This document shows positions 29,416-62,427 of a DNA stretch of 64,000 nucleotides, piece after piece. Every line of letters starts with the position of its first letter. Position 1 is the first letter of the stretch. A program made the translations under genes and the position numbers. The stretch comes from Candidatus Limnocylindria bacterium (GTDB lineage: Bacteria > Methylomirabilota > Methylomirabilia > Rokubacteriales > CSP1-6), in the NCBI GenBank assembly GCA_035524955.1, contig DATLFG010000072.1, positions 66,173 through 130,172 on the forward strand, in the 5' to 3' direction. Below the pieces are notes generated by a model. It was not told where the DNA came from, did no database searches, and was given only the letters and a program-made list of their open reading frames with translations.

Positions 29416-29521
29416 GCCGCGGGCCCGAATTACGTACCTGTACGAATAGACGAGGGCGCGGTCATGCGCGCAACGTTGCGGGCGGTGACGACGCGGTCCT
29501 CGGGAGTGTGCCCGCTCCGCC

Positions 29522-30931: not shown

Positions 30932-30988
30932 GCCGTCCTCCTCCTCCGGGGGCTCTGTCGCCGACGGTGTAGTATAACCGAGCCGACG

Positions 30989-34079: not shown

Positions 34080-34104
34080 AGTGCGGTACACTGCACGACG
34101 CGTG

Positions 34105-34878
34105 ATGTGGGCGTCGGCACGACTCTTCCTGCTGGCCGTGGTGGTGTCCGGCTGTGCGTCGGCCGCCCCGATCGACGCGGCGGTCCGCCGCCCGGCCCCG
34201 CCCGACCTGCTGCGCTTCGGGGTGGATACCTTCGCGTTCGCCAACGAGAGCCGCAGCAAGAATCGCGGCAAGCCCGACCTCTACGCCAACTACTGCTTCG
34301 TGATGGCGCGGGGCGTGACGCAGTTCCAGCGCTTCGCCCGCTTCGATCCGGCCGCGCCCCGGCTCACCGCCGAGGAGTACGTGGCGCGCGTCCGGCAGGT
34401 GGTCGCCAATGCGCCCTGGGCCGAGTCGTGGCCCCCCGACCGCCGCATCGTGATCCCCGGCTACGCCTCGCTGCACGAGTTCTCCCGCGCCCAGGAGGCG
34501 GCGGTGAAGACGGGGATGGTCGGGCGATTCTGGACGCTCGTGCACTGGACCAACTGGCGGGTGGTGTTCCCGTTCCCGCGCTGGCAGCAGGAGCGCGTCG
34601 CGCGCGAGGCGCTCGCCGAGCTGAGCGAAGGGCGGCCGGTGCAGCTCCTCGTGACGAACTTCCCGACGTGGGAGCTCAACCACACCGTGCTCGCCTACGC
34701 GTACGAGCTCGACGCGGCGGGCAACGTGCGGTTCACGGTCTACGACCCGAACGATCCCGCCCGCGCCGGGCGCGTCACCTTCGATCGGACCGCGCGCCGC
34801 TTCGAGGCGACCCGGCTCCACGACACGGAGCGGGGGCCGATCCGCGCGTTCCGCATGTACTACTGGGCCCTGCTCTAG
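34105..34878 (+). CDS. Hypothetical lipoprotein
   Basis: Signal peptide with lipobox (LLAVVVSGC). No family recognised. First gene of the lipid island. Confidence 0.5.
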   Translation: MWASARLFLLAVVVSGCASAAPIDAAVRRPAPPDLLRFGVDTFAFANESRSKNRGKPDLYANYCFVMARGVTQFQRFARFDPAAPRLTAEEYVARVRQVVANAPWAESWPPDRRIVIPGYASLHEFSRAQEAAVKTGMVGRFWTLVHWTNWRVVFPFPRWQQERVAREALAELSEGRPVQLLVTNFPTWELNHTVLAYAYELDAAGNVRFTVYDPNDPARAGRVTFDRTARRFEATRLHDTERGPIRAFRMYYWALL

Positions 34879-34882
34879 GCCG

Positions 34883-35791
34883 ATGGCGAGCGAGCCCGCC
34901 GCGCCCGACTGGTATTCGCATGGACTCAACCGGGTGGCCTACTACCGGCTGGCGAGCGCCGCCGCGGCGGCGCTGCCTCGCTCCGCGCGCCTGCGGATCG
35001 CGCGCGCGCTCGGCCGGCTGCTCGCGCGCGCGCTGCCCGCGGAGCGCCGGGCGGTGCGGAGCAACCTCGGGCGCGTGCTCGCGGGATCGGGGCCCGCCCT
35101 GATCGAGGCGCAGGTGGCGGAGACGTTCGCCAACTTCGGGGCCTTCTTCGCGGATCTCCTCACCCTCAACCGCCGCCCGGGCGCTGACCTCCGCGCCTTC
35201 GTCGCGTCCGCCGACGGGGAGCATCACCTCGACGCGGGCCTCGTGTCCGGGCGGGGCGTGGTGCTGCTCACCGCACACCTCGGCAACTGGGAGCTCGCGG
35301 GGCGGCTCCTGTCGTCCCGCGGCGGCCGCACCGCCCACGTGGTGCTCTCCGCCGAGCAGGACGCCGCGCTCGAGCGTTACCTCCGTCTCGACGGCCCGCA
35401 GCTCCGCTTCGTGACGCGCCACCACGCCACCTCCACGCTCGGCCTGCTCGCCGCGCTCCGGCGCGCCGAGCTGGTGGCGATGCAGGCAGACCGGCCCAGC
35501 GGCGGGCGGGGCGACGCGATCGTGCCCTTCTTCGGCGAGCCCGCCGCGTTTCCGCTGGGGCCCTTCGTGCTGGCCCGGGCGGCGGGCGCGGCGGTGGTGC
35601 CCGCCTTCTGTGCGATGGCGCCGAGCGGCCGCTATCGGCTCGAGATCGATCCGCCGATCTGGGTCAAGCCCGGCGAGGAGCAGGCCGGCCTCACCACCGT
35701 GGTCGCCGCGCTGGAGCGCGTGATCCGCGCGCAGCCCACCCAGTGGTTCAACTTCTTCGACGCATGGAGCCCGCCCGGTGGCCACCCCTGA
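34883..35791 (+). CDS. LpxL/HtrB-family (lipid A biosynthesis lauroyl/myristoyl) acyltransferase
   Basis: LPLAT_LABLAT-like with an HX4E motif (TAHLGNWELAG) and …QADRPSGGRGDAIVPFFGEPAAFPLGPFVLA…. Confidence 0.75.
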   Translation: MASEPAAPDWYSHGLNRVAYYRLASAAAAALPRSARLRIARALGRLLARALPAERRAVRSNLGRVLAGSGPALIEAQVAETFANFGAFFADLLTLNRRPGADLRAFVASADGEHHLDAGLVSGRGVVLLTAHLGNWELAGRLLSSRGGRTAHVVLSAEQDAALERYLRLDGPQLRFVTRHHATSTLGLLAALRRAELVAMQADRPSGGRGDAIVPFFGEPAAFPLGPFVLARAAGAAVVPAFCAMAPSGRYRLEIDPPIWVKPGEEQAGLTTVVAALERVIRAQPTQWFNFFDAWSPPGGHP

Positions 35792-36959
35792 GCGCGTGGT
35801 GGTCGCCGCCGCCGGGGTCGTGACCCCGATCGGTCAGGACCTCGAGGCGTTCTGGTCCTCGCTGGTCACCGGGGCCTCGGGCATCTCGCAGATCGAGCGC
35901 GTGCCGGTGGCCGACCTGCGCGTGCAGCGGGGCGGCGAGGTCAAGAAGCTCGGCCGCATCAAGGACTGGCGCGGCGTGCCCGAGTGCCGCGCGAGCCGCC
36001 TCCTGATCGCGGCCGCCGACGACCTCTGCGCGCAGGCCGGCTTCCGCCCGCTCCCGCTGGATCCGGCGCGGGTTGGGGTGGTGGTCGGCACCGCCCTGGG
36101 CGGCGTGGAGGAGGGGGAGAAGGCGCTCGCGGGCGACCGCGGGCGTCGGCGGCTGCCGCAGGCGCTCTATGACGGCCCCGGCTGGGCGCTCGCGCGGTGG
36201 CTCGGCGCGCGCGGGCCGGTGATCACGGTGTCCACCGCGTGCGCCTCGGGCGCCACCGCGATGGCGGTCGGCGCCGATCTGCTGCGCGCGGGCGAGGCCG
36301 ACGCGGTGGTGGCGGGAGGCTACGACGCGCTCTGCCGGTTCGTGCTGCGCGGCTTCGACGCCCTCCGATCGCTCACGCGCGACGAGGTCCGGCCGTTCGA
36401 TCGCCGCCGCAGCGGCCTGCTTCTGGGCGAGGCGGGCGCGCTCGCCCTGCTGGTGCGCGAGCGGGACGCGCGGGGCCCGCGGCTCGGCACCCTGCTGGGT
36501 TACGGCAGCGCCAGCGACGGCTTCCACATCGCGGCGCCCGAGCCGGAGGGTCGCGGCCTCGAGCGGGCGATCCGCGCCGCGCTCGCCGACGCGCGCGTCT
36601 CGGCCGCGGACATCGACCTGGTGAGCGCGCACGGTACCGCCACCCCGCTCAACGACCCGATCGAGACGGCCGCGCTCAAGCGGGCGCTGGGGCGGCGGGC
36701 CCACGAGATCCCGATCAACTCCATCAAGGGTAGCCTGGGGCACACCATGGGCGCCGCCGCCGCGCTCGAGGCCTTCATGTGTCTGCTGTCGGCGCAGCGG
36801 GGCCTGATCCCGCCCACCCTGCACCTGGAGGAGCCCGATCCGGTGTGCGATCTCGACTACGTGCCGGGCCGGGCGCGTCCGGGGCGGCCCCGCGTCATGC
36901 TGAGCACGTCCATGGGGTTCGGCGGCTGCAACGGGGCCCTCGTGCTCGAGGCCGCCTGA
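35778..36959 (+). CDS. Beta-ketoacyl-ACP synthase (FabF/KAS II-like)
   Basis: Active-site TACASG, His motifs (HGTATP… and …GHTMGAAAAL…) and a C-terminal GFGGCNGALVLE. Confidence 0.85.
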   Translation: MATPERVVVAAAGVVTPIGQDLEAFWSSLVTGASGISQIERVPVADLRVQRGGEVKKLGRIKDWRGVPECRASRLLIAAADDLCAQAGFRPLPLDPARVGVVVGTALGGVEEGEKALAGDRGRRRLPQALYDGPGWALARWLGARGPVITVSTACASGATAMAVGADLLRAGEADAVVAGGYDALCRFVLRGFDALRSLTRDEVRPFDRRRSGLLLGEAGALALLVRERDARGPRLGTLLGYGSASDGFHIAAPEPEGRGLERAIRAALADARVSAADIDLVSAHGTATPLNDPIETAALKRALGRRAHEIPINSIKGSLGHTMGAAAALEAFMCLLSAQRGLIPPTLHLEEPDPVCDLDYVPGRARPGRPRVMLSTSMGFGGCNGALVLEAA

Positions 36960-37026
36960 TGGGCGCTCCCGCGATCCGGGGCCTCGGCGTCCTGTCCGGG
37001 GCAGAGGCAAGGTCCGCCACGACAGG

Positions 37027-37125
37027 GTCCGCGGACGGGGGGAGTGCGGGGGCCAATTGCGGCGATTCCACCCAGGTAAAGTCCGCGGACGGGGGGAGTG
37101 CGGGGGCCATTTCTGGGCCCCCGCA
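37027..37125. repeat. REP-like element family 1, two tandem copies (54-nt period). Core GGGAGTGCGGGGGCC-ATTTCT-GGCCCCCGCA.
   Basis: Copy 1 at 37027-37064 is degenerate in its right arm. Copy 2 at 37081-37125 is intact. Related copies lie at 45343-45413 and 48855-48886. Confidence 0.7.
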
Positions 37126-37129
37126 TACA

Positions 37130-37876: not shown

Positions 37877-37892
37877 AACGGAGGTCGTGTTG

Positions 37893-38168
37893 ATGACCCA
37901 GAAGGAAGTCCTGGACGAGCTGAAGGGGCTCGTCGTCGAGCGGCTGAAGTTCGATCCGCGCCGGGCGGCCGAGATGACGCTCGAGACGACGCTGCCCAAG
38001 GGCGTCGACGGCTCGCTGGGCCTGGACTCGCTCGACTTCATCGAGCTGTCGGTCGCCATCGAGGAGCGCTTCGGGATCGTGATCGACGAGAGTCGCGATC
38101 TCACGGACGAGTTTCTCTCGCTCGACTCCCTCTCCCGGTTCATCCTGGCCAAGAACGGCCAGGCCTGA
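37893..38168 (+). CDS. Acyl carrier protein (dedicated)
   Basis: …GLDSLDFIELSVAIEERFG… carries the phosphopantetheine-attachment Ser in a DSL motif. 91 aa. Confidence 0.85.
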   Translation: MTQKEVLDELKGLVVERLKFDPRRAAEMTLETTLPKGVDGSLGLDSLDFIELSVAIEERFGIVIDESRDLTDEFLSLDSLSRFILAKNGQA

Positions 38169-38203
38169 GGGCTCGAGGCGCAGCCCCGGGCGATGAGCGC
38201 GGC

Positions 38204-39478
38204 ATGAGCCGGTCGGCGGCGCGCGACGGCCGGCCCGACGTCGTCGTCAGCGGCCTCGGGGTCGTGAGCCCCTACGGGGCCGGCGCGAAGAGCTTCTGGA
38301 GCGGGCTCGCCGCGGGTGCCTGCGCGATCAAGCCCATCACGGTCATCGAGACCGAGGGCTTCCGCTCGCGCATCGCCGCCGAGATCCCCGCCGAGGCCAT
38401 GAGCGCGCTGGGCGCCTCGCGCCGCCGCTCGCGCGCGGATCGGATCGCCCTCGCGGCGGCGCGCGAGGCCCTGGCCGACGCGGGCCTGGAGGGCGCCGCG
38501 CGCCGGGAGGCCGCCCTCCTGATCGGCGCGGTCGGGGGCGGCATGCTCGAGGGGGAGGACTGGTACTGGGAGGTCGCGCGCGGCCGCCCGTCGTCACGGA
38601 TGGGCGCGCTGCGCTCGATCCTGCCGTTCTCGCACGCCGAGACCCTCGGCTGGCGGCTCGGCCTCACCGGGCCCAAGGAGACGGTGGTCATGGCCTGTGC
38701 CTCCGGTGCCGCCTCGATCGCGCTGGGGGCCGATCTGATCCGTGGGGGCGTGACGCCCACCGCGCTGGTGGGCGGCGTGGATGCGCTGACCCACATCTGC
38801 TTCATGGGCTTCAACGCGCTCAAGCTGCTCGATCCCACCCCGTGCCGGCCCTTCGACCGTGAGCGGCGCGGCATGTCGATCGGGGAGGCCGCCGCCTTCC
38901 TGGTCATCGAGGACGCGGAGCACTGCCGGGCGCGGGGCGGGCGAGCGCACGCGCGCCTCGCCGGCTACGGCATGACCACCGACGCGTACCACGTCACCGC
39001 GCCGCATCCCGAAGGCGAGGGGATGATCCACGCGATGCGGCAGGCCCTGGCGGACGCCGGGCTCGCGGCGGCCGACATCGGCTACGTGAACGCCCACGGC
39101 ACCGGCACCCCGCAGAACGACCGCGCGGAGGCGCTCGCCCTCCGGCGCGTCTTCGGCGAGGGCGGGGTGCTGGTCAGCTCCACCAAGTCGCTGGTGGGCC
39201 ACACGATGGCGGCGGCGGGCAGCGTGGAGGCGGCCGCCACGATCCTGGCGCTCCAGCACGGGCTCCTGCCGCCGACCGCGAACCTCGACCAGGCGGATCC
39301 CGAGGTGCCCTTCGACTGCCTGCCGGGCGTCGCGCGTGCCGCCGAGGTGGCCGCCGCGCTGTCGAACTCGTTCGGCTTCGGCGGCCAGAACGTGAGCCTC
39401 GTGTTCGAGCTTGGCGAGGTGCACGTGCCGGGCGAGGCGCAGGCGAGCCGAGTGAATACAAGAGAGACGCTCCCGTGA
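38204..39478 (+). CDS. Beta-ketoacyl-ACP synthase II-like
   Basis: Active-site Cys (VVMACASGA), YHVTAPHPEG and NAHGTGTPQND. Confidence 0.85.
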   Translation: MSRSAARDGRPDVVVSGLGVVSPYGAGAKSFWSGLAAGACAIKPITVIETEGFRSRIAAEIPAEAMSALGASRRRSRADRIALAAAREALADAGLEGAARREAALLIGAVGGGMLEGEDWYWEVARGRPSSRMGALRSILPFSHAETLGWRLGLTGPKETVVMACASGAASIALGADLIRGGVTPTALVGGVDALTHICFMGFNALKLLDPTPCRPFDRERRGMSIGEAAAFLVIEDAEHCRARGGRAHARLAGYGMTTDAYHVTAPHPEGEGMIHAMRQALADAGLAAADIGYVNAHGTGTPQNDRAEALALRRVFGEGGVLVSSTKSLVGHTMAAAGSVEAAATILALQHGLLPPTANLDQADPEVPFDCLPGVARAAEVAAALSNSFGFGGQNVSLVFELGEVHVPGEAQASRVNTRETLP

Positions 39479-40614
39479 GCGCGGACCGCCGCGTCGTCGT
39501 CACCGGGATCGGCACCGTCAACGCCTCGACCGCCGGCGGCCGGGAAGCGCTGGCGCGGGCGCTGGCCCTCGGCCGCTCCGCGATCGCCCCGGTCCGCGCG
39601 TTCGACACTGCGGCGATGTCGAGCCGGCTCGCCGCCGAGGTGGACGAGGCGACGCTCGCCTCGCTCGTGGATCGCGACGCGGGCCGGCGGCTCTCGCGCA
39701 TCTGTCGCCTCGCCCTCGGAGCCTGCCTGCTCGCGGTGCGCGACGCGGACGTGGCGGGGGGGCCCGGGCTCGGTATCGTGGTGGGCACCGAGCACGGGGA
39801 CTTCACCTCGAGCCACGACTTCGCCCAGGGCTTCCTGCGCCGGGGCCCGGCCGGCCTCTCGCCGATGATTTTCCCCAATACCGTGATGAACACGATGGCC
39901 TCCATCGCGGCCATCGCGATCGGGGCAAAGGCCCCGTCGGTCACGGTGAACCAGGCCACCCTCGCGGGCGATCTCGCGGTCGTGCGCGGGGCGCGCCTGA
40001 TCACCGACGGTCACGCGGAGGCGGTGGTGGCGGGCGGCGTGGACGAGCTGTTCCACGACGTGTACGAGCGCCTGGCCCAGATGGGGGCGCTCTCCCCGAT
40101 GCGCGGCCGGGGCCAAGAGGGATGCCGGCCCTTCGCGGCCGATCACAACGGGCCGGTGCTGGGCGAGGGCGCCACGTTCCTGGTGCTGGAGGAGCGGGAG
40201 GCCGCGCGGGTGCGCGGCGCGCGGGTCATGGCCGAGATCACCGCGACCGCCTCGGGCAACGTGCCGGCCGCGCCCCACACCGGGCGGGCCGCGCGGGTCG
40301 ATGCCGGCTCCCCGGTGGCGCGCCTGATCCGCGGGCGCGGGGCGCCCGGCGTCGCGCGGTGCTACGGCGCCGGCAACGGCGACCCCGCGCTGGACGACTG
40401 GGAGCGCGCGCTGCTGGGCCGCGACCTGGCCGCGGCCGCCGCTCTGCTCCCACCGGTCTCGCTGGCCCCGCTCTTCGGGCAGCACGGCGGGCTCGGCGCG
40501 CTGCGCGTGGGCGCGGCCGCCCTGGACGCCTCACGCGGGACGGCGGCGGTACTCGTGCACGGCATCGCGCGCGGCGGCTGCCGGACCGCGATGATCGTGG
40601 AGCCCGCCCCTTGA
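39475..40614 (+). CDS. KS-beta / chain-length-factor-like protein with the active-site Cys replaced by Gln (KSQ)
   Basis: SVTVNQATLAGD where a KS has TACASG. Start overlaps the upstream stop. Typical type II PKS / aryl-polyene-like KS:CLF arrangement. Confidence 0.7.
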   Translation: MSADRRVVVTGIGTVNASTAGGREALARALALGRSAIAPVRAFDTAAMSSRLAAEVDEATLASLVDRDAGRRLSRICRLALGACLLAVRDADVAGGPGLGIVVGTEHGDFTSSHDFAQGFLRRGPAGLSPMIFPNTVMNTMASIAAIAIGAKAPSVTVNQATLAGDLAVVRGARLITDGHAEAVVAGGVDELFHDVYERLAQMGALSPMRGRGQEGCRPFAADHNGPVLGEGATFLVLEEREAARVRGARVMAEITATASGNVPAAPHTGRAARVDAGSPVARLIRGRGAPGVARCYGAGNGDPALDDWERALLGRDLAAAAALLPPVSLAPLFGQHGGLGALRVGAAALDASRGTAAVLVHGIARGGCRTAMIVEPAP

Positions 40615-42959
40615 ATCCGGTCAGCGAGCCCCTGATCGTCATCCCGGTTTTCAACGAGGCCCCCACCATCGGCGACATCGTGGAGCGCGCCCGGCTGCAC
40701 GGACCGGTGCTGGTGGTGGACGACGGCTCGACCGATCAGAGCGCCGCGGTGGCCGCGAGGGCCGGAGCCGAGGTGCTCTCGCTGGGCGGGCGCCGGGGCA
40801 AGGGCGCGGCGCTGCGACGCGCCTTCGCCGAGGGGCGGAGGCGCAAAGCCGAGTGGGTGGTGACCCTGGACGGCGACGGCCAGCACGATCCCGACGACAT
40901 CCCGCGGCTGCTCAAGGCGGCGATCGAGGAGCCGGGAGCCTTCGTGATCGGCGGGCGCCTGGGCGGGCTCGGGGCCGCGCCGACGCGGGTGATGCCCGCC
41001 GGGCGCCTCGCGGCCCTGCGCGTGGCGGGGTTCTTCATCGACTGGCTGGGCGGTGTCCCGGTCGCCGACACCCAGTCCGGCTTCCGCGTCTACCCGGCGC
41101 GCCTCCTCGCCACGGTGACGCCGCGTCACGGCGGATTCGTGCTGGAGAGCGAGATGCTGTTGCGCGCGGCCGCCCTGGGTTGGCGGGTCCTCGAGGTCCC
41201 GATCACGCCGATCCACTTCGAGGATCGCCGCAGCCGGTTCCGCCCGGCGCGCGACGGCCTCGCGGTCGGGGCCTTCCTGGCCGGCCGCATCGTGACGCGC
41301 TGGGCGCGCGAGAGCACCGCGGGCGCGCGCTACCTCCTCGGGATCTTCAGCCCGTCGCGCCTCCGGGCGCGACACCGCGAGATGTACGCGTTCGCGGCGC
41401 CGCATCGCGCTAACCCCTCCGGCTGGACGCTCGCCGTCGGCGCGTTCATCGCGGATCGCGCGATCCGGTCCGTCGAGGACGGCTGGCGCTCCCCGCACGC
41501 GCGCGGGCTGCGCCTGGCCGCGCTGGCCACCGCTGCGACCCCGCTCATGCTCGGACTCGCGCTGAGCCGGAGCGCGCTCGCCGCAGTCGGCATCGACTGG
41601 CTTGGCCCGGCGGCCCGGCGTCTCTATCGCCAGGAGGCCCTGGCGGGCACGCTGGAGGCGCCCGCGCGCCGGCGCGCCGCGGCCGCTCGTCCGGCGGACT
41701 ACGACGTGCTGGTGGTAGGCGGCGGTCCCGGCGGGTCGAGCGCGGCCACGTTCCTCTCGCGCGGCGGCCTGCGGGTGGCGGTGGCCGAGCGCGAGACCTT
41801 CCCGCGCTTCCACGTGGGCGAGTCGCTGCTGCCCGCCAACATGACGGTGCTCGAGCGCCTGGGCGTCCTCGACGAGGTGAAGGCGCACGGCTTCATCGTG
41901 AAGTCCGGCGCCTACTTCGCGGACCAGGAGATGGGCCTCGGCTACCAGTTCTTCTTCCGGGAGGGCAAGCCCTGGCCGCCCTACACCTACGAGGTGTCGC
42001 GCGGCGAGTTCGACAAGATCCTGCTCGATCACGCGGCCCGGCAGCCGAACGTGACCCTGCTCCAGCCCGCGAGCGTGGAGCGCGCGGCCTTCGACGACGA
42101 GGGCGTGACGGTGACCGTCTCCGAGGCCGCGGGGTCGCGCGAGATCCGCGCCCGCTTCCTGGTGGACGCGAGCGGGCGCGACGCGTTCATCGCCTCGCGG
42201 CACGGTCGGCGCCGCCCCATCGAGGGGCTGGGCAAGGTGGCGCTGTTCGCCCACTTCCGCGGCGGACGCCGCTGGCCCGGGAAGGAAGAGGGCAATATCC
42301 GCATCTTCATCTTCGAGCCGGGCTGGTTCTGGTACATCCCGTTCGTCAACGGCACGAGCAGCGTCGGCTGCGTGCTGCACGCGCGCACGGTGCGCGGGCG
42401 CGAGGGCAACCTGGAGCAGCTCTACGACTCGCTGATCGCCCGCTGCCAGGGGCTCGCCGAGGCGCTCGACGGCGCCCCCCGCATCACCGCGGTGCACCGC
42501 GCGGCGAACTTCTCGTACCGGACCGACCCGGCCATCGGCGACCGGTTCCTCTGCGTGGGCGACGCCATCGCGTTCGTGGATCCGATCTTCTCCTCCGGCG
42601 TCTACATCGCGACCCAGTCGGCGGAGCTCTCCTCGGCGGAGATCCTCAGGGCGTTCCGGGACAATCGCTTCGAGGCCCGCCGCTTCCGCGGCTACGAGCG
42701 CCGCATCCGCCGCGGGATGAAGCCCTTCCAGCGCTTCATCCGGAACTTCTACGATCCCTCGTTCATCGAGATGTTCCTCAAGCCGCGCGAGTTTGCGGGC
42801 ATGGTGGACAGCGTCACCGGGGTGCTGGCGGGCGGCGCCTTCCTCCGCTGCTCCCTCCGGATGCGGCTGTCGCTGGAGGTGTTCTTCACCGTCGTTCGCA
42901 TCAACCGCTGGGTCCGCCGGCGCCGGGGCCTGCCCACGGAATCCCGCTTCGAATGGTAG
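40611..42959 (+). CDS. Fusion protein: N-terminal GT2 polyprenyl-phosphate glycosyltransferase (ArnC/DPM1-like), a TM linker, and a C-terminal flavin-dependent halogenase-like domain
   Basis: GT2 region (…IVIPVFNEAPTIGDIVERA…VVDDGSTDQS…LDGDGQHDP…). Halogenase region (…YDVLVVGGGPGGSSAA…FHVGESLLP…EPGWFWYIPF…) with GxGxxG and WxWxIP motifs. One continuous frame. TTG start overlaps the upstream TGA. Confidence 0.65.
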   Translation: MNPVSEPLIVIPVFNEAPTIGDIVERARLHGPVLVVDDGSTDQSAAVAARAGAEVLSLGGRRGKGAALRRAFAEGRRRKAEWVVTLDGDGQHDPDDIPRLLKAAIEEPGAFVIGGRLGGLGAAPTRVMPAGRLAALRVAGFFIDWLGGVPVADTQSGFRVYPARLLATVTPRHGGFVLESEMLLRAAALGWRVLEVPITPIHFEDRRSRFRPARDGLAVGAFLAGRIVTRWARESTAGARYLLGIFSPSRLRARHREMYAFAAPHRANPSGWTLAVGAFIADRAIRSVEDGWRSPHARGLRLAALATAATPLMLGLALSRSALAAVGIDWLGPAARRLYRQEALAGTLEAPARRRAAAARPADYDVLVVGGGPGGSSAATFLSRGGLRVAVAERETFPRFHVGESLLPANMTVLERLGVLDEVKAHGFIVKSGAYFADQEMGLGYQFFFREGKPWPPYTYEVSRGEFDKILLDHAARQPNVTLLQPASVERAAFDDEGVTVTVSEAAGSREIRARFLVDASGRDAFIASRHGRRRPIEGLGKVALFAHFRGGRRWPGKEEGNIRIFIFEPGWFWYIPFVNGTSSVGCVLHARTVRGREGNLEQLYDSLIARCQGLAEALDGAPRITAVHRAANFSYRTDPAIGDRFLCVGDAIAFVDPIFSSGVYIATQSAELSSAEILRAFRDNRFEARRFRGYERRIRRGMKPFQRFIRNFYDPSFIEMFLKPREFAGMVDSVTGVLAGGAFLRCSLRMRLSLEVFFTVVRINRWVRRRRGLPTESRFEW

Positions 42960-42972
42960 GTGCCCGCCTCGC

Positions 42973-44163
42973 ATGGTAGACGTGCGCCGGCTCCTCCCGC
43001 GGGGCTACCTCTTCACGGTGCTGGGTATCGCGGTCGGCGTGGCCGGGCTCGTCGCGCTGGGCGCCATGGCGGAGCGCATCACGCGCTTCATCGACGGGGG
43101 CGACCGCTTCGTGCTTGGCCAGATCTCGGTGGCCGGCGAGGGCATGGGCATGGGCACCGGCTTCACCGCGGGCGGCCTGTTGCGCGCGTCCAAGATCGAG
43201 GAGATCGCGCGGGTATCCGGGGTGGCCGCGGTACAGGGGCAGGTGATGCTGCCGCTCAATCCCACCACGTCGCAGTTCCTGACCCTCACCCAGGAGCTGA
43301 TCCTGGGCGTGGATCCGGCGGTGCGCGTCTCCAACCGCGAGTTCCGCGAGCTCCCGGTGCGCGACGGGCGCGCCCTGCGCGAAGGCGATCGCGGGGTGGT
43401 GGTGGTCGGCGCCGACTTCGCGGCCTCGCGCGGCCTGCGGGCGGGCGGGACGCTCGACCTGGCGACCGGCCGGAGCTTCCAGGTGGTGGGGGTGCTCGAC
43501 AAGACGCTCACCGCGCCCGATCGCTTCGCGATCGTGCCCCTCGACGACGCCCGCGATCTCTGGCTGCGGCGCGACCCGCTGCTCGTGCAGGTCTTCACGG
43601 GGGGCGCGGGCGGCCTCGGCCGCCGCGACCTGAACACCGGCGCGGCGGTGGCGTGGGCGGACGGGGTGGATCCGGACGCGCTCGCGCGCCGCATCCAGGC
43701 CGAGGTGCCCGGCCTCAACGTCACGATCCCCGGTGAGCTGAGCCGCCTGCTGCGGCAGTCCACCGCGTTCTTCTCGGCGCTGCTCTTCGGCATCGGGGTG
43801 CTGGGGCTCGTGATCGGCGGGCTCTCGCTCTCCAACACGGTGACGGCGGCGGTCTTCGAGCGTATCCGCGACTTCGGCATCAAGCGGGCGCTCGGCGCCA
43901 CTGACGGGCAGCTCCTGCGCGAGATCCTGGGCGAGGCCCTCGGCGTGTCCATGTCGGGGGGACTGCTCGGGGTAGGGCTGGCCCTCGCGGTCGGCACCCT
44001 GGTGGACGCGCGGGGCGGAGGCCAGCAGCTCTTCCTCTTCTCGCCCCGCCTGCTCGGCTTCGCGCTCGCCTTCTCGATCGTCCTGGGCGGACTCGCCGCC
44101 ACCTACGCCACCCTCCGGATCGTGCGGCTGTCGCCCGCCGAGGCCATCCGGCGCGGAGCCTGA
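42973..44163 (+). CDS. ABC transporter permease, FtsX/MacB/LolE family
   Basis: N-terminal TM, a large periplasmic domain and a C-terminal 3-TM FtsX-like region (…LGATDGQLLREIL…). Confidence 0.8.
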   Translation: MVDVRRLLPRGYLFTVLGIAVGVAGLVALGAMAERITRFIDGGDRFVLGQISVAGEGMGMGTGFTAGGLLRASKIEEIARVSGVAAVQGQVMLPLNPTTSQFLTLTQELILGVDPAVRVSNREFRELPVRDGRALREGDRGVVVVGADFAASRGLRAGGTLDLATGRSFQVVGVLDKTLTAPDRFAIVPLDDARDLWLRRDPLLVQVFTGGAGGLGRRDLNTGAAVAWADGVDPDALARRIQAEVPGLNVTIPGELSRLLRQSTAFFSALLFGIGVLGLVIGGLSLSNTVTAAVFERIRDFGIKRALGATDGQLLREILGEALGVSMSGGLLGVGLALAVGTLVDARGGGQQLFLFSPRLLGFALAFSIVLGGLAATYATLRIVRLSPAEAIRRGA

Positions 44164-44164
44164 G

Positions 44165-44857
44165 GTGGTCGTCCGCGCGCGCGGGCTCAGCAAGACGTTC
44201 CGGGGTCCCGACGGCCGGCCGGTTCCGGTGCTCCGCGGCGTGGACGTGGCCGTGGAGGCGGGCGAGTTCGTGGCGGTGGCGGGGCCGTCCGGCTGCGGCA
44301 AGACCACCCTGCTGAACCTGCTCGGCCTGCTCGAGCCGGCCGACGCGGGCGAGATCTGGCTCGACGAGGTCTGTGTGAATCGGCTCTCGCGCCGGGCCCA
44401 GTGCGGGGTGCGGGGGCGCTCGATCGGCTACGTGTTCCAGTCGTTCCTGCTGATCGCCGGCCTCACCGCGCTCGAGAACGTGCTGCTCGCCGCACGCTAC
44501 GTCGGGCGTCCGCGGCCGTCGGCGCTGGCGGAGGCGCGGGTCCTGATGGAGCGGCTCGGGGTCGCCCACCGCGCGGACCACTACCCGGCGCAGCTCTCGG
44601 GCGGCGAGCAGCAGCGGGTGGCCTATTGCCGGGCGGTGCTCAACACTCCGCCGCTCGTGCTGGCCGACGAGCCGACCGGCAACCTGGACGAAGGCCACGC
44701 CGCGGTGATCCTGGCGGAGTTGCGCGCGCTCTGCCGCGGGCGTGGGACCTCGGTCATCCTGGTCACGCATCGGGCCGATGCGGCCGCCCGCGCGGACCGC
44801 GCCCTGCGCCTGCGCGAGGGTCGGCTCGAAGCGTCGGGAGGCGACGGGCCCGCATGA
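44165..44857 (+). CDS. ABC transporter ATP-binding protein (MacB/LolD-like)
   Basis: Walker A (GPSGCGKTT), LSGGEQQRVA signature and Walker B (LVLADEPTGNLD). Confidence 0.85.
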   Translation: MVVRARGLSKTFRGPDGRPVPVLRGVDVAVEAGEFVAVAGPSGCGKTTLLNLLGLLEPADAGEIWLDEVCVNRLSRRAQCGVRGRSIGYVFQSFLLIAGLTALENVLLAARYVGRPRPSALAEARVLMERLGVAHRADHYPAQLSGGEQQRVAYCRAVLNTPPLVLADEPTGNLDEGHAAVILAELRALCRGRGTSVILVTHRADAAARADRALRLREGRLEASGGDGPA

Positions 44858-44873
44858 TCGGCCGCCCCCTCTA

Positions 44874-46715
44874 GTGGGGAGGCTTCGCGGCGCCGGCGTC
44901 GCCGTCCTCCTGGTCGTGGCCCTGGCCGCGGCGCTGCTCGCCCCGGGCCTGGGCCGGGCGCCCTTCGACGATCCGGGCGAAGGCCAGCACGCGGAGATCG
45001 CCCGGGAGATGCTGGGTGGGAGCTGGCTCACGCCGCGCCTGAACGGTGTGCGCTACTTCGACAAGCCCCCGTTGCTCTACTGGCTAACCGGGATCTCCTT
45101 CTCGCTCTTCGGCTTGACCGAAGGCGCCGCGCGCCTGGCCCCTCTGCTGGGCGCGCTGCTCGCCGTGGCGGCCACGGCGGTGCTGGGCGCCAGGTTGCTG
45201 GGACCCGCCGGCGGCGCGCTGGCTGGCCTGGCGCTCTTGTCCTGCGCCCTCTTCGCGGCGTTTGCGCGGTACGTGCGGCCGGAGAGCCTGTTCGTGGCCG
45301 CTATGGCCTGGGGCTTTACGGGGCTTCTTGTGCATATGCGGGGGCCCAACTCTCTTAATCCTCTCGCCTCGCCGGCGCCTGCGGCTCGCCAAGCGGGCCC
45401 CCGCACTCCCCCAACCGCGGACGCTCGTTCCGGCGCTGCCTGGGCCTTGCTCGGCTGCGCGGCGCTCGGGGTCGCGGCGCTCGCCAAGGATCCGCTGGGG
45501 TTGATCGGGCCGCTGGCGGCGATCGCGGTCGCGGCGGGGCTGGCGGGGCGGCTGCGGCCGGTGCGCGCCTGGCTGCCGCCGCTCGGGGTGGCGCTCCTCG
45601 TCATCATCGGGTTCGGCTGGTACGTGGTGGCCGCGCTGATCGAGCCCGCGTTCCTCTGGTACACGGTGGTCGACAACCATCTGCTGAACGTCGCGCGGAT
45701 GCGGCAGTTCCCCGACGAGGACGTGCCGCTCTCCGCGCTCGAGTTCCTCACCGCGGCCTCCTTCGGGGCCTTTCCCTGGATCGTGGCGGCCGCGGTGGCG
45801 GTGGGTGCGCTCATCCGCGGGCGCGCCTGGCGTGATCCCGCGGAGCTGCCGTGGGTCGCTCTGGCCCTCTGGATGGTGGGCGTGCTCGCGCTCTTCACGA
45901 TCTCGCCGTTCAAGCTGCCGCACTACGGCCTGCCCGCCTATCCCGCGCTGGCCCTGCTCGCGGCACGCGCGTGGCGCGACGCCGCGCCGCGGCCGCGCGG
46001 GCTGATCGCGGCCCACCTGGTACTCTTCGCCCTCGCGGGCGCGGGCTGCGCCTGGGCCGCGGCGGGCGACGGGCAGGCGTTCACCGAGGCGGTGTTCGGC
46101 GTCTCCGACGTGTACTCGCGGAAGGAGGCGGCGTGGGGACAGGCGTCGCCCTATCCCGCGTGGTCGGCGCTCCAGCCGCTGGTGAGGTGGGCGGCGGTGG
46201 TGCTGCTCGCGGGCGCGGCGGGTCTGGCGGCGGCGGCGGCGCGCCGCTCGGCGCGCGCCGGGGCCTGGACGGTGGCGGCGGCGATGCTCCTGCTCACGCC
46301 GGTGGTGGCGATGGGGCTCACGGTGACCTCGTCGGCCCGCGCGGTCACCGTGATGGCGGCGGAGATCCGGGCCCGGCTGGCGCCGGACGACGTGCTCGTG
46401 CTCGAGGGCCCCATCGAGAACGCGGGCGCGGTGGAATTCTACTCGGGGCGCCGGCCGGCCCTGCTCGACGCCTCCCGCAGCGTGCTCGGCATCGGGGCCA
46501 CCTTCGCGGACGCGGCGGACACCTTCTGGAGCGCTCCGCGTTTCGCGGAAGCGTGGGCGTCGTCGCGACCGCCCTATCTGCTGACCACGCGCGAGCCGGG
46601 ACGGGGCATCGTGGCCTCCCTGCCGCCCGCGAGCGCCCGGTTGCTCTTCGCCCACAACGGCCGCTGGCTCTACGGCCGCGCCCCCGCCGGTGACGCGGCG
46701 CCGGCCTCGCGCTGA
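44874..46715 (+). CDS. GT-C family glycosyltransferase (GT39/GT83 ArnT/PMT-like; a lipid-linked sugar is the predicted donor)
   Basis: …RYFDKPPLLYWLTGISFSLFG… is an ArnT-like motif. Multi-TM N-terminus plus a periplasmic C-terminal domain. GTG start. Confidence 0.75.
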   Translation: MGRLRGAGVAVLLVVALAAALLAPGLGRAPFDDPGEGQHAEIAREMLGGSWLTPRLNGVRYFDKPPLLYWLTGISFSLFGLTEGAARLAPLLGALLAVAATAVLGARLLGPAGGALAGLALLSCALFAAFARYVRPESLFVAAMAWGFTGLLVHMRGPNSLNPLASPAPAARQAGPRTPPTADARSGAAWALLGCAALGVAALAKDPLGLIGPLAAIAVAAGLAGRLRPVRAWLPPLGVALLVIIGFGWYVVAALIEPAFLWYTVVDNHLLNVARMRQFPDEDVPLSALEFLTAASFGAFPWIVAAAVAVGALIRGRAWRDPAELPWVALALWMVGVLALFTISPFKLPHYGLPAYPALALLAARAWRDAAPRPRGLIAAHLVLFALAGAGCAWAAAGDGQAFTEAVFGVSDVYSRKEAAWGQASPYPAWSALQPLVRWAAVVLLAGAAGLAAAAARRSARAGAWTVAAAMLLLTPVVAMGLTVTSSARAVTVMAAEIRARLAPDDVLVLEGPIENAGAVEFYSGRRPALLDASRSVLGIGATFADAADTFWSAPRFAEAWASSRPPYLLTTREPGRGIVASLPPASARLLFAHNGRWLYGRAPAGDAAPASR

Positions 46716-46718
46716 CCG

Positions 46719-47309
46719 GTGCTGACCGAGCTGATCGGCCACTTCACGTATCCGGGGGTGTTCCTGGTTCTGCTCGCCACCGGCCTGGGCCTGCCGATCC
46801 CGGAGGAGCTGCCGATCGTCATCGCGGCCATGATGTCGCGCTGGGAGGTGATGCACTGGTGGGGCGCGCTCCTGTCCTGCCTGGGCGGCGTGCTGGCCGG
46901 CGACATGCTGCTCTACGCGGTGGGCCGGCAGTTTGGCCGGCGCATCCTCGAGTGGCCCGCCGCGCGGCGCATCCTGACTCCGAAGCGGGAGGCGCGGGTC
47001 ATGGAGGCCTACCATCGCCACGGCCTCAAGTTCTTGATCCTGGCTCGGCTCGTGATGGGGCTGCGGGCGGCCGCCTTCCTGACCGCGGGGCTGGTCCGGG
47101 TGCCGTTCCTCCGCTTCCTCCTGGTGGACGTCGCCGCGGTGCTGGTGAGCGTCACGCTAGCGTTCGGCCTGGCCTACGCGGTCGCGGACTCGGTGGCGGT
47201 GGCGCTCGCCCACGTGCACGAGCTGCAGCTCTGGGTCGGCGGCGCCGTCCTGCTGGCCGCGGCCGCATGGATCCTCGTCCTGTGGCGCCGCCACCGCCGG
47301 CGGGGCTAG
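46719..47309 (+). CDS. DedA/TVP38-family membrane protein
   Basis: …VFLVLLATGLGLPIPEELPIVIAA…HGLKFLILARLVMGLRAAAFLTAG… are DedA hallmarks. Confidence 0.8.
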   Translation: MLTELIGHFTYPGVFLVLLATGLGLPIPEELPIVIAAMMSRWEVMHWWGALLSCLGGVLAGDMLLYAVGRQFGRRILEWPAARRILTPKREARVMEAYHRHGLKFLILARLVMGLRAAAFLTAGLVRVPFLRFLLVDVAAVLVSVTLAFGLAYAVADSVAVALAHVHELQLWVGGAVLLAAAAWILVLWRRHRRRG

Positions 47310-47358
47310 TGGCCGGGACCGGTGGCCGCGCCGGCGGCTGTGGTATCGTGAGCCAACC

Positions 47359-48777
47359 GTGACCGACTACCAGCGTACGCTGTTTCTCCATCCGCCCGCG
47401 GTGGCCGGCTTCGACGGCGGCGCGGGCTCGCGCTACCAGGCCCGGCGCGAGATCCGGTCCTTCTGGTACCCGACCTGGCTGGCCCAGCCGGCCGCGCTGG
47501 TGCCGGGCTCGAGGCTCGTGGACGCCCCGCCGGACGGCCTCACCCTGGACGACGTGCTGCCGCTGGCCCGGGGCTACGACCTCTGCGTCATGCACACCAG
47601 CACGCCGTCGTTCGCCTCGGACGTGCGCGTGGCCGAGGCGCTCAAGGCCGAGAACCCCGCGCTCATCATCGGGCTCGTGGGGGCCGCGGTGGCGGTGGCT
47701 CCGGAGGCCTCGCTCCGGGCGAGCGCCGCGCTCTCCTTCGCGGCCCGGAGCGAGTTCGACTTCACGATCCAGGAGGTGGCTCAGGGCCGGCGCTTCGCCG
47801 ACGTCCGCGGGCTCTCCTACCGGGTCAACGGCCATGTGGAGCACACGCCGGAGCGTCCCCCGCTCGAGAACATGGACGCGCTGCCCTTCGTGACGCCGAT
47901 CTACAAGCGCGACCTCACCGTCGAGCACTACGCGATCGGCTACCTCCAGCACCCCTACGTGTCGCTCTACACCGGGCGCGGCTGCCGCTCCCGGTGTACC
48001 TTCTGCCTCTGGCCGCAGACGGTGGGGGGGCAGCGCTATCGCACCCGCAGCACCGAGCACGTGGCCGAGGAGATGGCGCAGGCCGCGCGGATGTTCCCGC
48101 AGGTGCGCGAGTTCTTCTTCGACGACGACACGTTCACCGACGACCTGCCCCGCGCGGAGGCCATCGCGAAGCGGCTCGGGCGGCTCGGGGTCACCTGGTC
48201 GGTCAACGCCAAGGCCAACGTGCCCTACGCGACCCTGAAGGTGCTCAAGGACAACGGCCTCCGTCTCCTCCTGGTGGGCTACGAGTCAGGCAACCAGGCC
48301 ATCCTGAACAACGTCAAGAAGGGCGTGCGCCTCGACGTGGCACGGCGGTTCACCCGCGGCGCCAAGTCGCTCGGCATCGCCGTCCACGGCACCTTCATCC
48401 TGGGCCTACCCGGCGAGACGCCCGAGACCATCGCGGAGACCATCCGCTTCGCCACCGAGATCGACCCCGACACCATCCAGGTCTCGCTGGCCGCGCCGTA
48501 TCCGGGCACCGCGCTCTACGAGGAGGCGCAGCGCAACGGCTGGCTCGAGTCCGACGAGCTGGTGGACGGGGCCGGGGTCCAGGTGAGCGCGCTCGGCTAC
48601 CCGCATCTCTCGCGCCCCGAGATCTTCCGCTCGGTGGACCAGTTCTACCGCCGCTTTTACTTCCGCCCCCGCAAGATGCTCTCGCTGGGCTCCGAGATGC
48701 TCCGCGACCGCCGGGTGATGAAGCGCCGTCTGTCCGAGGGCCGCGAGTTCCTGCGGTTCCTCCGCACCCGCCGCTAG
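47359..48777 (+). CDS. B12-binding radical SAM protein (HpnJ-like class B)
   Basis: N-terminal B12-binding domain (…AGFDGGAGSRYQARREIRSFWYPTWLAQPAA…). Radical-SAM cluster motif (…GRGCRSRCTFCLWPQ…). Strongly resembles the hopanoid-associated HpnJ family, from memory. Confidence 0.75.
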   Translation: MTDYQRTLFLHPPAVAGFDGGAGSRYQARREIRSFWYPTWLAQPAALVPGSRLVDAPPDGLTLDDVLPLARGYDLCVMHTSTPSFASDVRVAEALKAENPALIIGLVGAAVAVAPEASLRASAALSFAARSEFDFTIQEVAQGRRFADVRGLSYRVNGHVEHTPERPPLENMDALPFVTPIYKRDLTVEHYAIGYLQHPYVSLYTGRGCRSRCTFCLWPQTVGGQRYRTRSTEHVAEEMAQAARMFPQVREFFFDDDTFTDDLPRAEAIAKRLGRLGVTWSVNAKANVPYATLKVLKDNGLRLLLVGYESGNQAILNNVKKGVRLDVARRFTRGAKSLGIAVHGTFILGLPGETPETIAETIRFATEIDPDTIQVSLAAPYPGTALYEEAQRNGWLESDELVDGAGVQVSALGYPHLSRPEIFRSVDQFYRRFYFRPRKMLSLGSEMLRDRRVMKRRLSEGREFLRFLRTRR

Positions 48778-48784
48778 AGGGTCC

Positions 48785-48936
48785 GGCGCGGTGACTGGGC
48801 GTTGCGCCCGGTTGCGGGCAGCCTCTCTATCCGCCTCGGTTGTCCGCGGATTGAGGGAGTGCGGGGGCCATTTCTGGGCCCCCGCATTGGATAGAGAAGC
48901 TCCCCGCATCCAGGCGCAACGCGCGGTCACCGCGCC
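48785..48936. repeat. Composite nested palindrome containing a REP family-1 copy
   Basis: Outer arms GGCGCGGTGACTGGGCGTTGCGCC / GGCGCAACGCGCGGTCACCGCGCC. Inner arms CTCTCTATCC / GGATAGAGAAG. Core GGGAGTGCGGGGGCCATTTCTGGGCCCCCGCA at 48855-48886. Confidence 0.7.
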
Positions 48937-49020
48937 AAAACCACCCGCCTCGACCCCGGTGGCCCGCGGACGACCCTGACCCGGCGTCCGAAACGCCGTG
49001 CGTGCTAGCATGTTCACGAG

Positions 49021-54206: not shown

Positions 54207-54211
54207 GCGCG

Positions 54212-56530: not shown

Positions 56531-56550
56531 GGTCCCGCACGGCTATTCTC

Positions 56551-62421: not shown

Positions 62422-62427
62422 GCGGCG

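Follow-up and report, generated by a model that had tools for sequence, protein, structure and literature searches.

Gene content and layout of the island

This analysis concerns a run of lipid-related genes in a stretch of 64,000 nucleotides (the window) from contig DATLFG010000072.1 of a Candidatus Limnocylindria bacterium, placed in the Rokubacteriales by GTDB. Thirteen genes (g2–g14), all on the plus strand, form an island at positions 34105–48777, in which two pairs of β-ketoacyl-ACP synthase (KS) and chain-length-factor (CLF)-like genes and a dedicated acyl carrier protein (ACP) are combined with lipid-tailoring, export and glycosylation genes and with hpnJ. The arrangement lies far beyond chance and recurs in 44 related loci, and, judged from sequence, the island corresponds to no characterised pathway and most likely serves the making of specialised outer-envelope lipids. 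A literature search on Rokubacteria with aryl polyenes or hopanoids found no paper describing this gene order.

Raw lists of open reading frames were noisy because of the high G+C content of the window (~72%); genes were called from codon-position GC profiles, start-codon inspection and Pfam/NCBIfam scans. These calls bore out the extent of the island and all of the protein families named in the initial annotation. With the short-chain dehydrogenase/reductase (SDR) gene g1 included, the plus-strand series is unbroken from 33315 to 48777, and comprises the following genes:

33315..34079 (+): g1, SDR oxidoreductase, accessory and possible ketoreductase (adh_short/adh_short_C2)
34105..34878 (+): g2, lipoprotein with papain-like Cys-His-Asp fold (DUF8321/DUF8322)
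34883..35791 (+): g3, acyltransferase of the LpxL/PatA/ApeD family (Lip_A_acyltrans, PF03279)
35778..36959 (+): g4, β-ketoacyl-ACP synthase KS1, catalytically complete (ketoacyl-synt N and C domains)
36959 (or 37130)..37876 (+): g5, short degenerate KS, CLF-like partner 1
37893..38168 (+): g6, ACP (PP-binding)
38204..39478 (+): g7, β-ketoacyl-ACP synthase KS2, catalytically complete (FabF model)
39475..40614 (+): g8, FabF-derived, catalytically dead KS, CLF-like partner 2 (KS N-terminal domain only)
40611..42959 (+): g9, fusion of a family 2 glycosyltransferase (GT2) and a flavin-dependent halogenase, 782 aa (Glycos_transf_2 and Trp_halogenase)
42973..44163 (+): g10, MacB/FtsX-type ABC permease (MacB_PCD and FtsX)
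44165..44857 (+): g11, ABC ATPase, LolD/MacB/DevA-like (ABC_tran)
44874..46715 (+): g12, GT-C glycosyltransferase, PMT_2/ArnT-like (PMT_2 and PMT)
46719..47309 (+): g13, DedA/VTT membrane protein, candidate polyprenyl-phosphate transporter (VTT_dom)
47359..48777 (+): g14, HpnJ, B12-type radical S-adenosylmethionine (SAM) enzyme (TIGR03471)

The junctions between g2 and g14 range from -14 to +49 nt, and the start–stop overlaps previously reported at several of them were read as GTGA at g7/g8, TTGA at g8/g9 and a 1-nt TGATG at g4/g5. The genes are presumably co-transcribed. Upstream, g1 ends 25 nt ahead of g2 and is one of the two SDR genes already noted there, the other lying at 30164–30955 (-). 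Downstream, serA lies 3' of g14 after a gap of 243 nt; this spacer (48778–49020) holds a GC-rich hairpin, GGGGGCC-ATTTCT-GGGCCCCC, with no T tail and no Rfam match. Terminator-like sites within the island numbered four against 3.7 expected from shuffles, which is no excess. Promoter-like matches did not rise above shuffles either, and as the promoter types of the phylum are not established, that scan is uninformative. Nothing relevant came from scans for Rfam families, tRNAs and tandem repeats in the window or island.

Some of the earlier assignments had to be adjusted. The first gene of the island is present as announced and encodes a papain-fold lipoprotein and not a biosynthetic enzyme of known family. 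The ArnC-like GT2 and the halogenase domain were both found, on one polypeptide (g9) and not on separate genes. The exporter is likewise real, its type being an ABC pair of the MacB/LolCDE/DevCA kind (g10/g11) and not an RND pump. The reported absence of dehydratase and thioesterase was upheld, neither being found in the 64-kb window.

Conservation and modularity among Rokubacteria

One genome per species was scanned for the fusion protein or its split form, which yielded 44 loci in metagenome-assembled genomes (MAGs) of Rokubacteria/Methylomirabilota. Synteny was assessed by tblastn of all window proteins against these loci, together with gene calls on selected loci. The homologues listed for g9 and g2 were relatives with ≥66% identity, and more distant context was taken from genome-contig loci and a plasmid collection. 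The search in related genomes, which the initial annotation had put forward as a check, recovered the island in all 44 loci, with protein identities down to 41–60%. The conserved order is lipoprotein, KS, CLF, ACP, KS, CLF, GT2(-halogenase), FtsX permease, ABC ATPase and GT-C, with the exceptions that the lipoprotein was undetected in L036 and the ACP in L027. At least hundreds of near-identical copies of the island occur in public metagenomes.

The loci fall into three groups. Group A (~75–97% identity) has the exact content of the window, including DedA, serA and the cupin gene; for a relative on a 5.4-Mb contig, the gene calls were identical to those of the window. Group B (~55–80%) has no DedA and often misses the LpxL-like gene at its usual place. 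The halogenase is absent in four of its loci (L034, L035, L036 and L047), and in seven a CopD-like gene on the opposite strand, accompanied or not by a family 28 glycosyltransferase (GT28) gene, lies between GT-C and hpnJ. Group C (41–70%; L029, L030, L032, L041, L042 and L044) has neither SDR nor serA, and hpnJ follows directly after GT-C. Its flanks differ fully, with DHODH upstream and a family 4 carbohydrate esterase (CE4) and GT28 downstream. Overall, the LpxL-like g3 was missing or relocated in ~11 related loci.

Flanking synteny falls well short of explaining the conservation of the core, to which the LpxL-like gene, the halogenase, DedA and the SDR stand as exchangeable additions. Since several parts are dispensable among relatives, a modular envelope-lipid operon is likelier than an indivisible 13-gene pathway. 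The initial annotation had named a division into separate operons as grounds for giving up its reading; terminator-like sites are not in excess and the core is co-conserved, yet several parts come and go and seven loci hold opposite-strand insertions.

Such gains and losses would also be expected if unrelated operons—a set resembling fatty acid synthase (FAS), an ABC transporter, a GT-C/DedA pair and hpnJ—had been packed together by genome compaction and shared ancestry. In keeping with this, the synteny of groups A and B also takes in the clearly unrelated serA and cupin genes, and group B has its insertions between GT-C and hpnJ. However, the tight junctions and translational-coupling overlaps run across the module borders, the core order is kept in group C despite wholly different flanks, and every module concerns membrane lipids or glycolipids, so that we regard chance neighbourhood as quite unlikely.

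Some variants and labels deserve a separate record. Locus L035 holds a UbiE-type methyltransferase gene between the ABC ATPase and GT-C (12996–14266) and, after hpnJ, an ApeQ-like FabG, an LpxL-like gene and another methyltransferase (17659–20639), which brings it nearer to the aryl polyene (APE) gene set than the window island. Contigs with the island also occur in MAGs labelled Nitrosotalea, Nitrosocosmicus, Verrucomicrobiia, Dormibacterota, Acidoferrum and Deferrimicrobiaceae (L001, L003, L005, L010, L011, L017 and L019). With 64–91% protein identity to g9 of the window, they are probably mis-binned Rokubacteria. Finally, relatives of groups A and B share with the window a gene directly 5' of the SDR that group C does not have (g0; 32215–33171, +). 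Its 318-aa product is a membrane protein of two similar halves, with ~8 transmembrane (TM) segments and no Pfam/NCBIfam match, and the gene may belong to the island as a further member.

Predicted functions of the island modules

Both complete KSs resemble FabF. The FabF model matched g4 with 303 bits and its Cys (TACASG), His (AHGTAT) and His (GHTMG) residues were read in the sequence; its best PDB match was 9s5h_B with 260 bits, against 245 to an ordinary FabF. With g7, the FabF model scored 348 bits and the Cys-His-His triad is intact, the PDB scores being 280 bits for Thermus thermophilus FabF, 278 for 9s5h_B and 180 for ApeO (6qsp_A). Both KSs thus score higher to FabF (245–280 bits) than to ApeO (~180 bits). 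Of the degenerate proteins, g5 gave a weak match to the N-terminal ketoacyl-synt domain (29.5 bits) and lacks the active-site Cys. Its residues 1–59 are of low complexity and not conserved relative to the L080 ortholog; the conserved part begins near 37130 and the start is uncertain. In g8, the Cys is replaced (NQATLAGD), the HGTGT histidine is absent and only the N-terminal KS domain is scored. Its best PDB match was 9s5h_C (119 bits versus 117 to FabF), the partner chain of an anammox KS heterodimer, so that the two chains of one heterodimer (9s5h B and C) are the best solved matches of g4 and g8. On these sequence features, g5 and g8 are the putative CLF-like partners of g4 and g7. An identity of g5 with ApeC was not supported, as a profile of g5 orthologs gave no significant match to ApeC-type CLFs (hhalign probability ~1%).

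The ACP g6 carries the serine motif LGLDSLD (DSL) and is 67–97% identical across related loci. The KS, CLF and discrete ACP that mark APE clusters are represented by two KSs, two dead KS partners and one ACP. The SDR g1, which occurs in group A/B loci and not in group C, had its best NCBIfam matches to KduD, glucose-1-dehydrogenase and FabG-like models and shares only 27% identity with FabG from an APE-type cluster. Pfam/NCBIfam scans matched no island protein to FabA, FabZ, ApeI or ApeP. The g4/g5 and g7/g8 heterodimers would extend an acyl chain on the dedicated ACP. Because the island has no dehydratase or enoyl reductase, and group C no reductase at all, this chain would either be reduced by housekeeping FAS II or be kept in part as an enolisable or aromatic poly-β-keto end; such retained parts would offer the halogenase an electron-rich target.

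The fusion protein g9 comprises a GT2 domain (aa 1–~230), a membrane linker (~aa 300–318) and a halogenase domain (aa 363–715). The GT2 domain has a DGD motif and finds its best PDB matches in ArnC and dolichol-phosphate mannose synthase (DPMS). The halogenase domain contains GGGPGG at 370, WFWYIP at 572 and FVDPIFSSG, and K431 falls, in alignment, on the region of PltA and ChlB4 that holds the catalytic lysine. Its best PDB matches are ChlB4, PltA, CndH and CmlS (190–200 bits) and Mpy16-type enzymes, most of which act on carrier-protein-tethered substrates. The acyltransferase g3 matched PF03279 with 119 bits and carries the HX4E motif of LpxL/PlsC-type acyltransferases as HLGNWE; its best NCBIfam match was a phosphatidylinositol mannoside (PIM) acyltransferase, at 97 bits under a cutoff of 209. 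By analogy, the GT2 domain would attach a hexose or hexosamine to the phosphate of a lipid, as ArnC and DPMS do with polyprenyl phosphate and as proposed for ApeJ in aryl-polyene lipids. The halogenase would chlorinate or brominate an ACP-bound intermediate, its class acting on carrier-tethered, electron-rich substrates, and g3 would pass the ACP-borne acyl chain to a hydroxyl group on a glycolipid or lysolipid of the membrane.

Outside the phylum, the closest homologues of these genes lie in proteobacterial clusters of the APE/xanthomonadin type (Azospirillum ramasamyi, Skermanella and Burkholderia), with identities of 30–46% for GT2, 35–40% for the halogenase and 28% for g3. Their neighbours there are KS, CLF, FabG, a hot-dog dehydratase, an MMPL transporter, a LolA-like protein, an AMP ligase and ACP; the plasmid locus of Azospirillum ramasamyi (L082) is a fully annotated example. 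In the plasmid collection, g3 found only eight matches, all in records with an APE-type halogenase/GT2 cluster. A gene resembling dolichol-phosphate mannose synthase and a halogenase are conserved neighbours of KS/CLF in such loci according to a study of Lysobacter (PMC3691225). In Xenorhabdus, ApeD puts the conjugated acyl chain onto a lysophospholipid (10.1101/2020.12.19.423268; see also PMC8253772) and ApeJ both links GalNAc to the lipid phosphate and attaches the aryl polyene (10.1101/2020.12.19.423268). Counterparts of both, an ApeD-like transferase and an ApeJ-like GT2, are present as g3 and the GT2 domain of g9.

These homologies could mean an ordinary APE/xanthomonadin pigment cluster whose dehydratases, ketoreductase, aryl-AMP ligase and MMPL/LolA exporter are encoded at other genomic sites, the more so as KS, CLF, ACP, GT2 and halogenase form the typical neighbourhood of xanthomonadin loci (PMC3691225) and L035 has an ApeQ-like FabG and methyltransferases beside the island. 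We consider this highly unlikely. The Azospirillum APE dehydratase had no tblastn match in the window or in any Rokubacteria locus; ApeH-like, thioesterase, MMPL (ApeM), LolA-like and DUF3261 genes were found neither in or beside the island nor in the 44 loci; and no clear ApeQ-type reductase was seen in or beside the window island, g1 being only a possible ketoreductase and the one ApeQ-like FabG lying in L035. The sole AMP-binding gene of the window lies ~23 kb upstream of the island, with 27% identity over a partial match. Moreover, the KSs are nearer to FabF than to ApeO, the CLFs are not ApeC-like, two KS/CLF pairs take the place of one, and the exporter is of the ABC and not the RND type.

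A canonical APE cluster was therefore rejected on the lack of dehydratases (ApeI/ApeP), a clear ApeQ-type reductase, aryl-AMP ligase and MMPL/LolA exporter. The initial annotation had asked whether dehydratase, ketoreductase and thioesterase genes of such a cluster might adjoin the island, and the dehydratase and thioesterase were found neither at the island nor in the 44 loci, the ketoreductase having candidates in g1 and in the FabG of L035. Its aryl-polyene analogy holds as direct homology for GT2, halogenase and the LpxL-like protein, and does not extend beyond these attachment and tailoring genes, since neither a closer relation of the KSs to ApeO than to FabF nor a detectable similarity of g5 to ApeC was seen. 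As a separate observation, a stand-alone module of three genes without KS occurs in Omnitrophota and Verrucomicrobiota (L071, 8023–10672; L049, L052, L056 and L077, around 8000–10700). It encodes an MGDG_synth-like GT28, an LpxL-family acyltransferase and an ArnC/ApeJ-like GT2, and may be the ancestral glycolipid core of the Rokubacteria island.

Periplasmic glycosylation is represented by g12, with ~11–13 TM segments and 89 bits to the ArnT model (cutoff 567), and by g13, which gave weak matches to DedA and UptA models and was found in group A loci only. In place of DedA, group C carries a gene for a small lipoprotein-like protein and one for an ArnE/F-like EamA half-transporter, both between the ABC ATPase and GT-C. 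The three-component Gtr scheme (GtrB/GtrA/GT-C), the LgmA/B/C system and the role of DedA/UptA proteins as carrier-lipid transporters provide the background here. All components of an Arn/Gtr route—GT2, flippase candidate and GT-C—are present by type, with every score far below the equivalog cutoffs, and the Arn analogy of the initial annotation thus stands at family level and no further. In such a scheme, g13 would move or recycle the polyprenyl-phosphate carrier and g12 would transfer the sugar to a periplasm-facing acceptor; the ArnE/F-like proteins would stand in for DedA, and their place beside GT-C in the DedA-less group C fits a carrier-lipid flipping step.

Taken together with the dedicated ACP, the FabF-like KSs and the LpxL-family gene, these genes raise the question of a locus for remodelling lipid A after the rhizobial and Arn models, in which GT2, DedA and GT-C would place sugars on lipid A phosphates as ArnC/ArnT or LgmA/LgmB do and the hopanoid link would parallel the hopanoid-lipid A (HoLA) of Bradyrhizobium. 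The first part of the argument follows the logic of the rhizobial locus acpXL-fabZXL-fabF1XL-fabF2XL-lpxXL, with its dedicated ACP, extra FabF-like KSs and LpxL-family gene and with housekeeping FAS II for the rest, and HoLA shows that a hopanoid and lipid A with very-long-chain fatty acids (VLCFA) can be covalently joined (PMC5613085). The best solved relative of GT2 is ArnC, GT-C matches the ArnT model and group C has ArnE/F-like genes. Against this, there is no FabZXL equivalent, the ArnT and ArnC scores fall far short of their cutoffs, g3 has its best matches among PatA-like and ApeD-like proteins and is missing from ~11 related loci, and the halogenase and the MacB-type exporter fit neither model. 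On PRK06553 and PRK06508, which we take to be rhizobial-type models, g3 reached 48 bits (cutoff 273) and g6 19.6 bits (cutoff 83). The earlier analogy with AcpXL/LpxXL therefore applies at family level and not beyond, and a lipid A locus appears improbable.

The exporter would be a type VII ABC system, for which a MacB_PCD and FtsX permease (g10, four TM segments) and an ATPase (g11) are present, the ATPase scoring below the cutoffs (DarD 190, LolD 180 and DevA 164 bits). The island encodes no membrane-fusion adaptor of the MacA/DevB type. The window copy of g2 has no Pfam match, its ortholog carrying DUF8321/DUF8322. Owing to its papain-like fold, which is neither that of LolA nor that of a membrane fusion protein, a LolA/LolB-type carrier role was rejected; g2 is predicted to be a periplasm-facing Cys-His enzyme, a hydrolase or transacylase. 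The MacB-type pair would extract the lipid from the inner membrane, and g2 would act on it at the periplasmic side.

The initial annotation had placed g14 correctly among class-B radical SAM enzymes and underrated it, since it is specifically an HpnJ ortholog. It scored 768.5 bits on TIGR03471 (cutoff 577.6) over profile positions 2–471 of 472, carries the CxxxCxxC motif as CRSRCTFC, and is 64% identical over 99% of its length to annotated HpnJ of Mycetohabitans, Paraburkholderia, Caballeronia and Methylobacterium, where the context is hpnI-hpnJ-hpnK-hpnL. On this similarity, g14 qualifies as a true HpnJ ortholog, and a hopanoid enzyme is the simplest reading. Genetics in Burkholderia cenocepacia tied HpnJ to bacteriohopanetetrol (BHT) cyclitol ether, for which a radical ring contraction of BHT-glucosamine was proposed (review PMC13459092). 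In a genome survey, HpnJ domains were found only in genomes with squalene-hopene cyclase (SHC) and HpnH, both are given for 5/5 species of Rokubacteriales (Table S5), and tables place hpnJ of Methylomirabilis next to SHC (10.1101/2025.07.29.667474). SHC and HpnP are common in Rokubacteria (PMC10697835; also PMC7306690). An HpnJ ortholog in a phylum with SHC and HpnH links the island to hopanoid side-chain chemistry.

The partners of HpnJ differ from the proteobacterial ones. No SHC or other hpn gene was found in the 64-kb window, no homologue of HpnI, HpnK or HpnL in the window or the 44 loci, and the GT2 domain of g9, considered as HpnI, proved unrelated on comparison. Still, hpnJ follows GT-C and the island in 31 of the 32 loci long enough to be informative, group C included. 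In five group C loci (L041, 18279–20134, -; L030, L032, L042 and L044), a NodB/PgdA-like CE4 deacetylase and a UgtP-like GT28 are convergent with hpnJ, and a UgtP-like GT28 adjoins it in two group B loci (L034/L047, 16715–17842, -). The window has neither GT28 nor CE4. This context suggests that a GT28 lipid glycosyltransferase and a GlcNAc deacetylase may replace HpnI and HpnK in this phylum as non-orthologous counterparts. Sugar transfer and deacetylation would then come from these two enzymes, and g14 would contract the ring of a lipid-bound glucosamine by radical chemistry and so yield an aminocyclitol ether, the lipid most probably being BHT.

The same observations could be drawn together into a single unified pathway, in which HpnJ acts on the island's own hexosamine glycolipid: GT2 or GT28 would add GlcNAc or GalNAc, CE4 would deacetylate it and HpnJ would contract the ring, to give a halogenated, polyketide-acylated aminocyclitol lipid. 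The regular position of hpnJ at the island end, the lack of hpnI, hpnK and hpnL near g14, the flanking UgtP-like GT28 (a diacylglycerol glycosyltransferase family) and NodB-like deacetylase in group C, the three-gene module that the same GT28 forms in Omnitrophota and Verrucomicrobiota together with an LpxL-like gene and a GT2 gene, and a homologous deacetylase (40–50% identity) in the Azospirillum APE-type cluster all point this way. The high identity of g14 to hopanoid HpnJ, the restriction of the family to SHC- and HpnH-bearing genomes and the place of Methylomirabilis hpnJ beside SHC speak against it, as do the missing GT28 and CE4 in the window, the seven loci in which opposite-strand genes split off hpnJ and its absence in L036. 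We judge the unified pathway unlikely. A doubtful extension, offered as speculation, is that HpnJ is used outside the hpnI/hpnK route, with GT28 and CE4 making glucosaminyl-BHT or -diacylglycerol for ring contraction by HpnJ, and that a biosynthetic or physical link joins the resulting aminocyclitol lipid to the operon's halogenated acyl chain of polyketide type. This would amount to a new class of outer-membrane lipid, halogenated acyl-aminocyclitol or hopanoid-linked, which the MacB-type pump would export.

Among the more distant neighbours, a region ~4 kb upstream of the island (26001–29908, +) encodes a possible regulator: a four-GAF histidine kinase and, after it, a response regulator of the LuxR type and a receiver domain standing alone. 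On the other side are a pentose-phosphate/sugar block (52698–58626, -) with G6PD, an RpiB-PGI-like fusion (757 aa) and an FGGY kinase that is much extended at its N-terminus, and a protein of the AsmA/DUF748 family (62422–64000, +), a lipid-transport family, which runs off the window end.

Overall interpretation and relation to known systems

To the reading we prefer we give about an even chance. It holds that the region is a composite, modular envelope-lipid operon or tightly linked neighbourhood of a Rokubacteria-like bacterium, which would combine a specialised, usually halogenated acyl-glycolipid with polyprenyl-phosphate-dependent periplasmic glycosylation and a hopanoid cyclitol ether. 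The substrates, order of steps, halogenation target and acceptor lipids given above are proposals made within this framework. A specialised, possibly halogenated envelope acyl- or glycolipid outside the described pathways, as originally suggested, is still the best fit, with a modular operon in place of one 13-gene pathway. Several points weigh against the preferred reading. The LpxL-like gene, halogenase, DedA and SDR are each absent from some relatives, so that the modules may not serve one product; the synteny of groups A and B runs on into serA and the cupin gene, and part of the conservation therefore reflects shared ancestry. The KSs are no nearer to ApeO than to FabF and g5 shows no detectable likeness to ApeC. 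The GT2 could feed GT-C, by Arn/Gtr logic, or act on phospholipid in the manner of ApeJ, and the halogenase has no obvious aromatic substrate. The split loci of group B and the hpnJ-less L036 weaken the case for HpnJ being strictly tied to the other genes.

In soils, the uncultured Rokubacteria are abundant, and their genomes are large. The island is among their most conserved lipid loci and is a good phylum-wide target for lipid discovery. If expressed, it should give a previously unseen envelope lipid, probably halogenated, and would show the aryl-polyene type of anchoring (LpxL-like protein and GT2) rewired to another chain-building set and another exporter. The context of HpnJ is a lead on the formation of BHT cyclitol ether, which serves as a geochemical biomarker, in a phylum apparently without adjacent hpnI/hpnK, and raises the question of whether HpnJ chemistry extends to non-hopanoid glycolipids.

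Among known systems, the APE and xanthomonadin clusters (ape of Escherichia coli CFT073 and Xenorhabdus doucetiae; Xanthomonas/Lysobacter; Azospirillum L082) share with the island the type II KS with a dead partner and discrete ACP, the ApeD-like LpxL-family and DPM-synthase-like (ApeJ-like) GT2 proteins that anchor the chain to a sugar-phospholipid, a halogenase beside GT2 in xanthomonadin-type loci, and a dedicated outer-membrane export system. In contrast, the island lacks ApeI/ApeP, a clear ApeQ-type reductase, aryl-AMP ligase, thioesterase and the MMPL/LolA/DUF3261 set. It has two KS/CLF pairs with KSs nearer to FabF, fuses GT2 to the halogenase, exports through a MacB-type ABC system and adds the papain-fold lipoprotein, GT-C, DedA and HpnJ. 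With the hpnI-hpnJ-hpnK module of Burkholderia cenocepacia, Mycetohabitans and Methylobacterium it has in common the full-length HpnJ ortholog, in a phylum that carries SHC and HpnH. Its hpnJ stands without hpnI, hpnK and hpnL and next to GT-C and DedA, and divergent relatives have the UgtP-like GT28 and CE4 where proteobacterial hpnJ has hpnI and hpnK.

The Arn system (ArnC/ArnE-F/ArnT) is alike in the GT2 family, the flippase candidate (DedA, or EamA in group C) and the PMT_2/ArnT-like GT-C, whereas in the island GT2 is fused to the halogenase, the ABC exporter lies between GT2 and GT-C, and there are no genes for sugar-nucleotide modification. The rhizobial VLCFA locus resembles the island in its dedicated ACP, extra FabF-like KSs and LpxL-family transferase; the island is without FabZXL, has four KS-family genes, two of them dead, and holds a halogenase, GT2, exporter and GT-C that are foreign to the rhizobial locus. 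A further parallel is given by 9s5h, a PDB entry for which no publication was found and whose relatives are all anammox Brocadiales (source lineage by homology only). The corresponding anammox locus (L083, 9194–15449) comprises ACP, an ApeI/P-like dehydratase, two KSs, an amine-oxidase-like flavoenzyme and a B12 radical SAM enzyme, and is presumably the "ladderane" cluster. It shares with the island a FabF-like KS heterodimer together with a flavoenzyme and a B12 radical SAM enzyme, but the island flavoenzyme is a halogenase, not of the amine-oxidase/desaturase type, and there is no ApeI/P-like dehydratase. A ladderane-type assignment was rejected: besides the missing dehydratase, g14 reached 80 bits on the ladderane-type radical SAM model TIGR04072 (cutoff 360) and the KS scores to 9s5h barely exceed those to FabF, for which reasons the island was not grouped with the anammox cluster.

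On present evidence, the island is not a categorically new system. The family of each part is known already, and its logic—an acyl chain on a private ACP, tailoring, glycolipid anchoring and export—is that of the aryl-polyene lipids. What is new is that two FabF-derived KS/CLF pairs, unaccompanied by dehydratases, are combined with a GT2-halogenase fusion, a MacB-type exporter alongside a lipoprotein of papain fold, a GT-C/DedA set and an HpnJ that lacks its usual partners.

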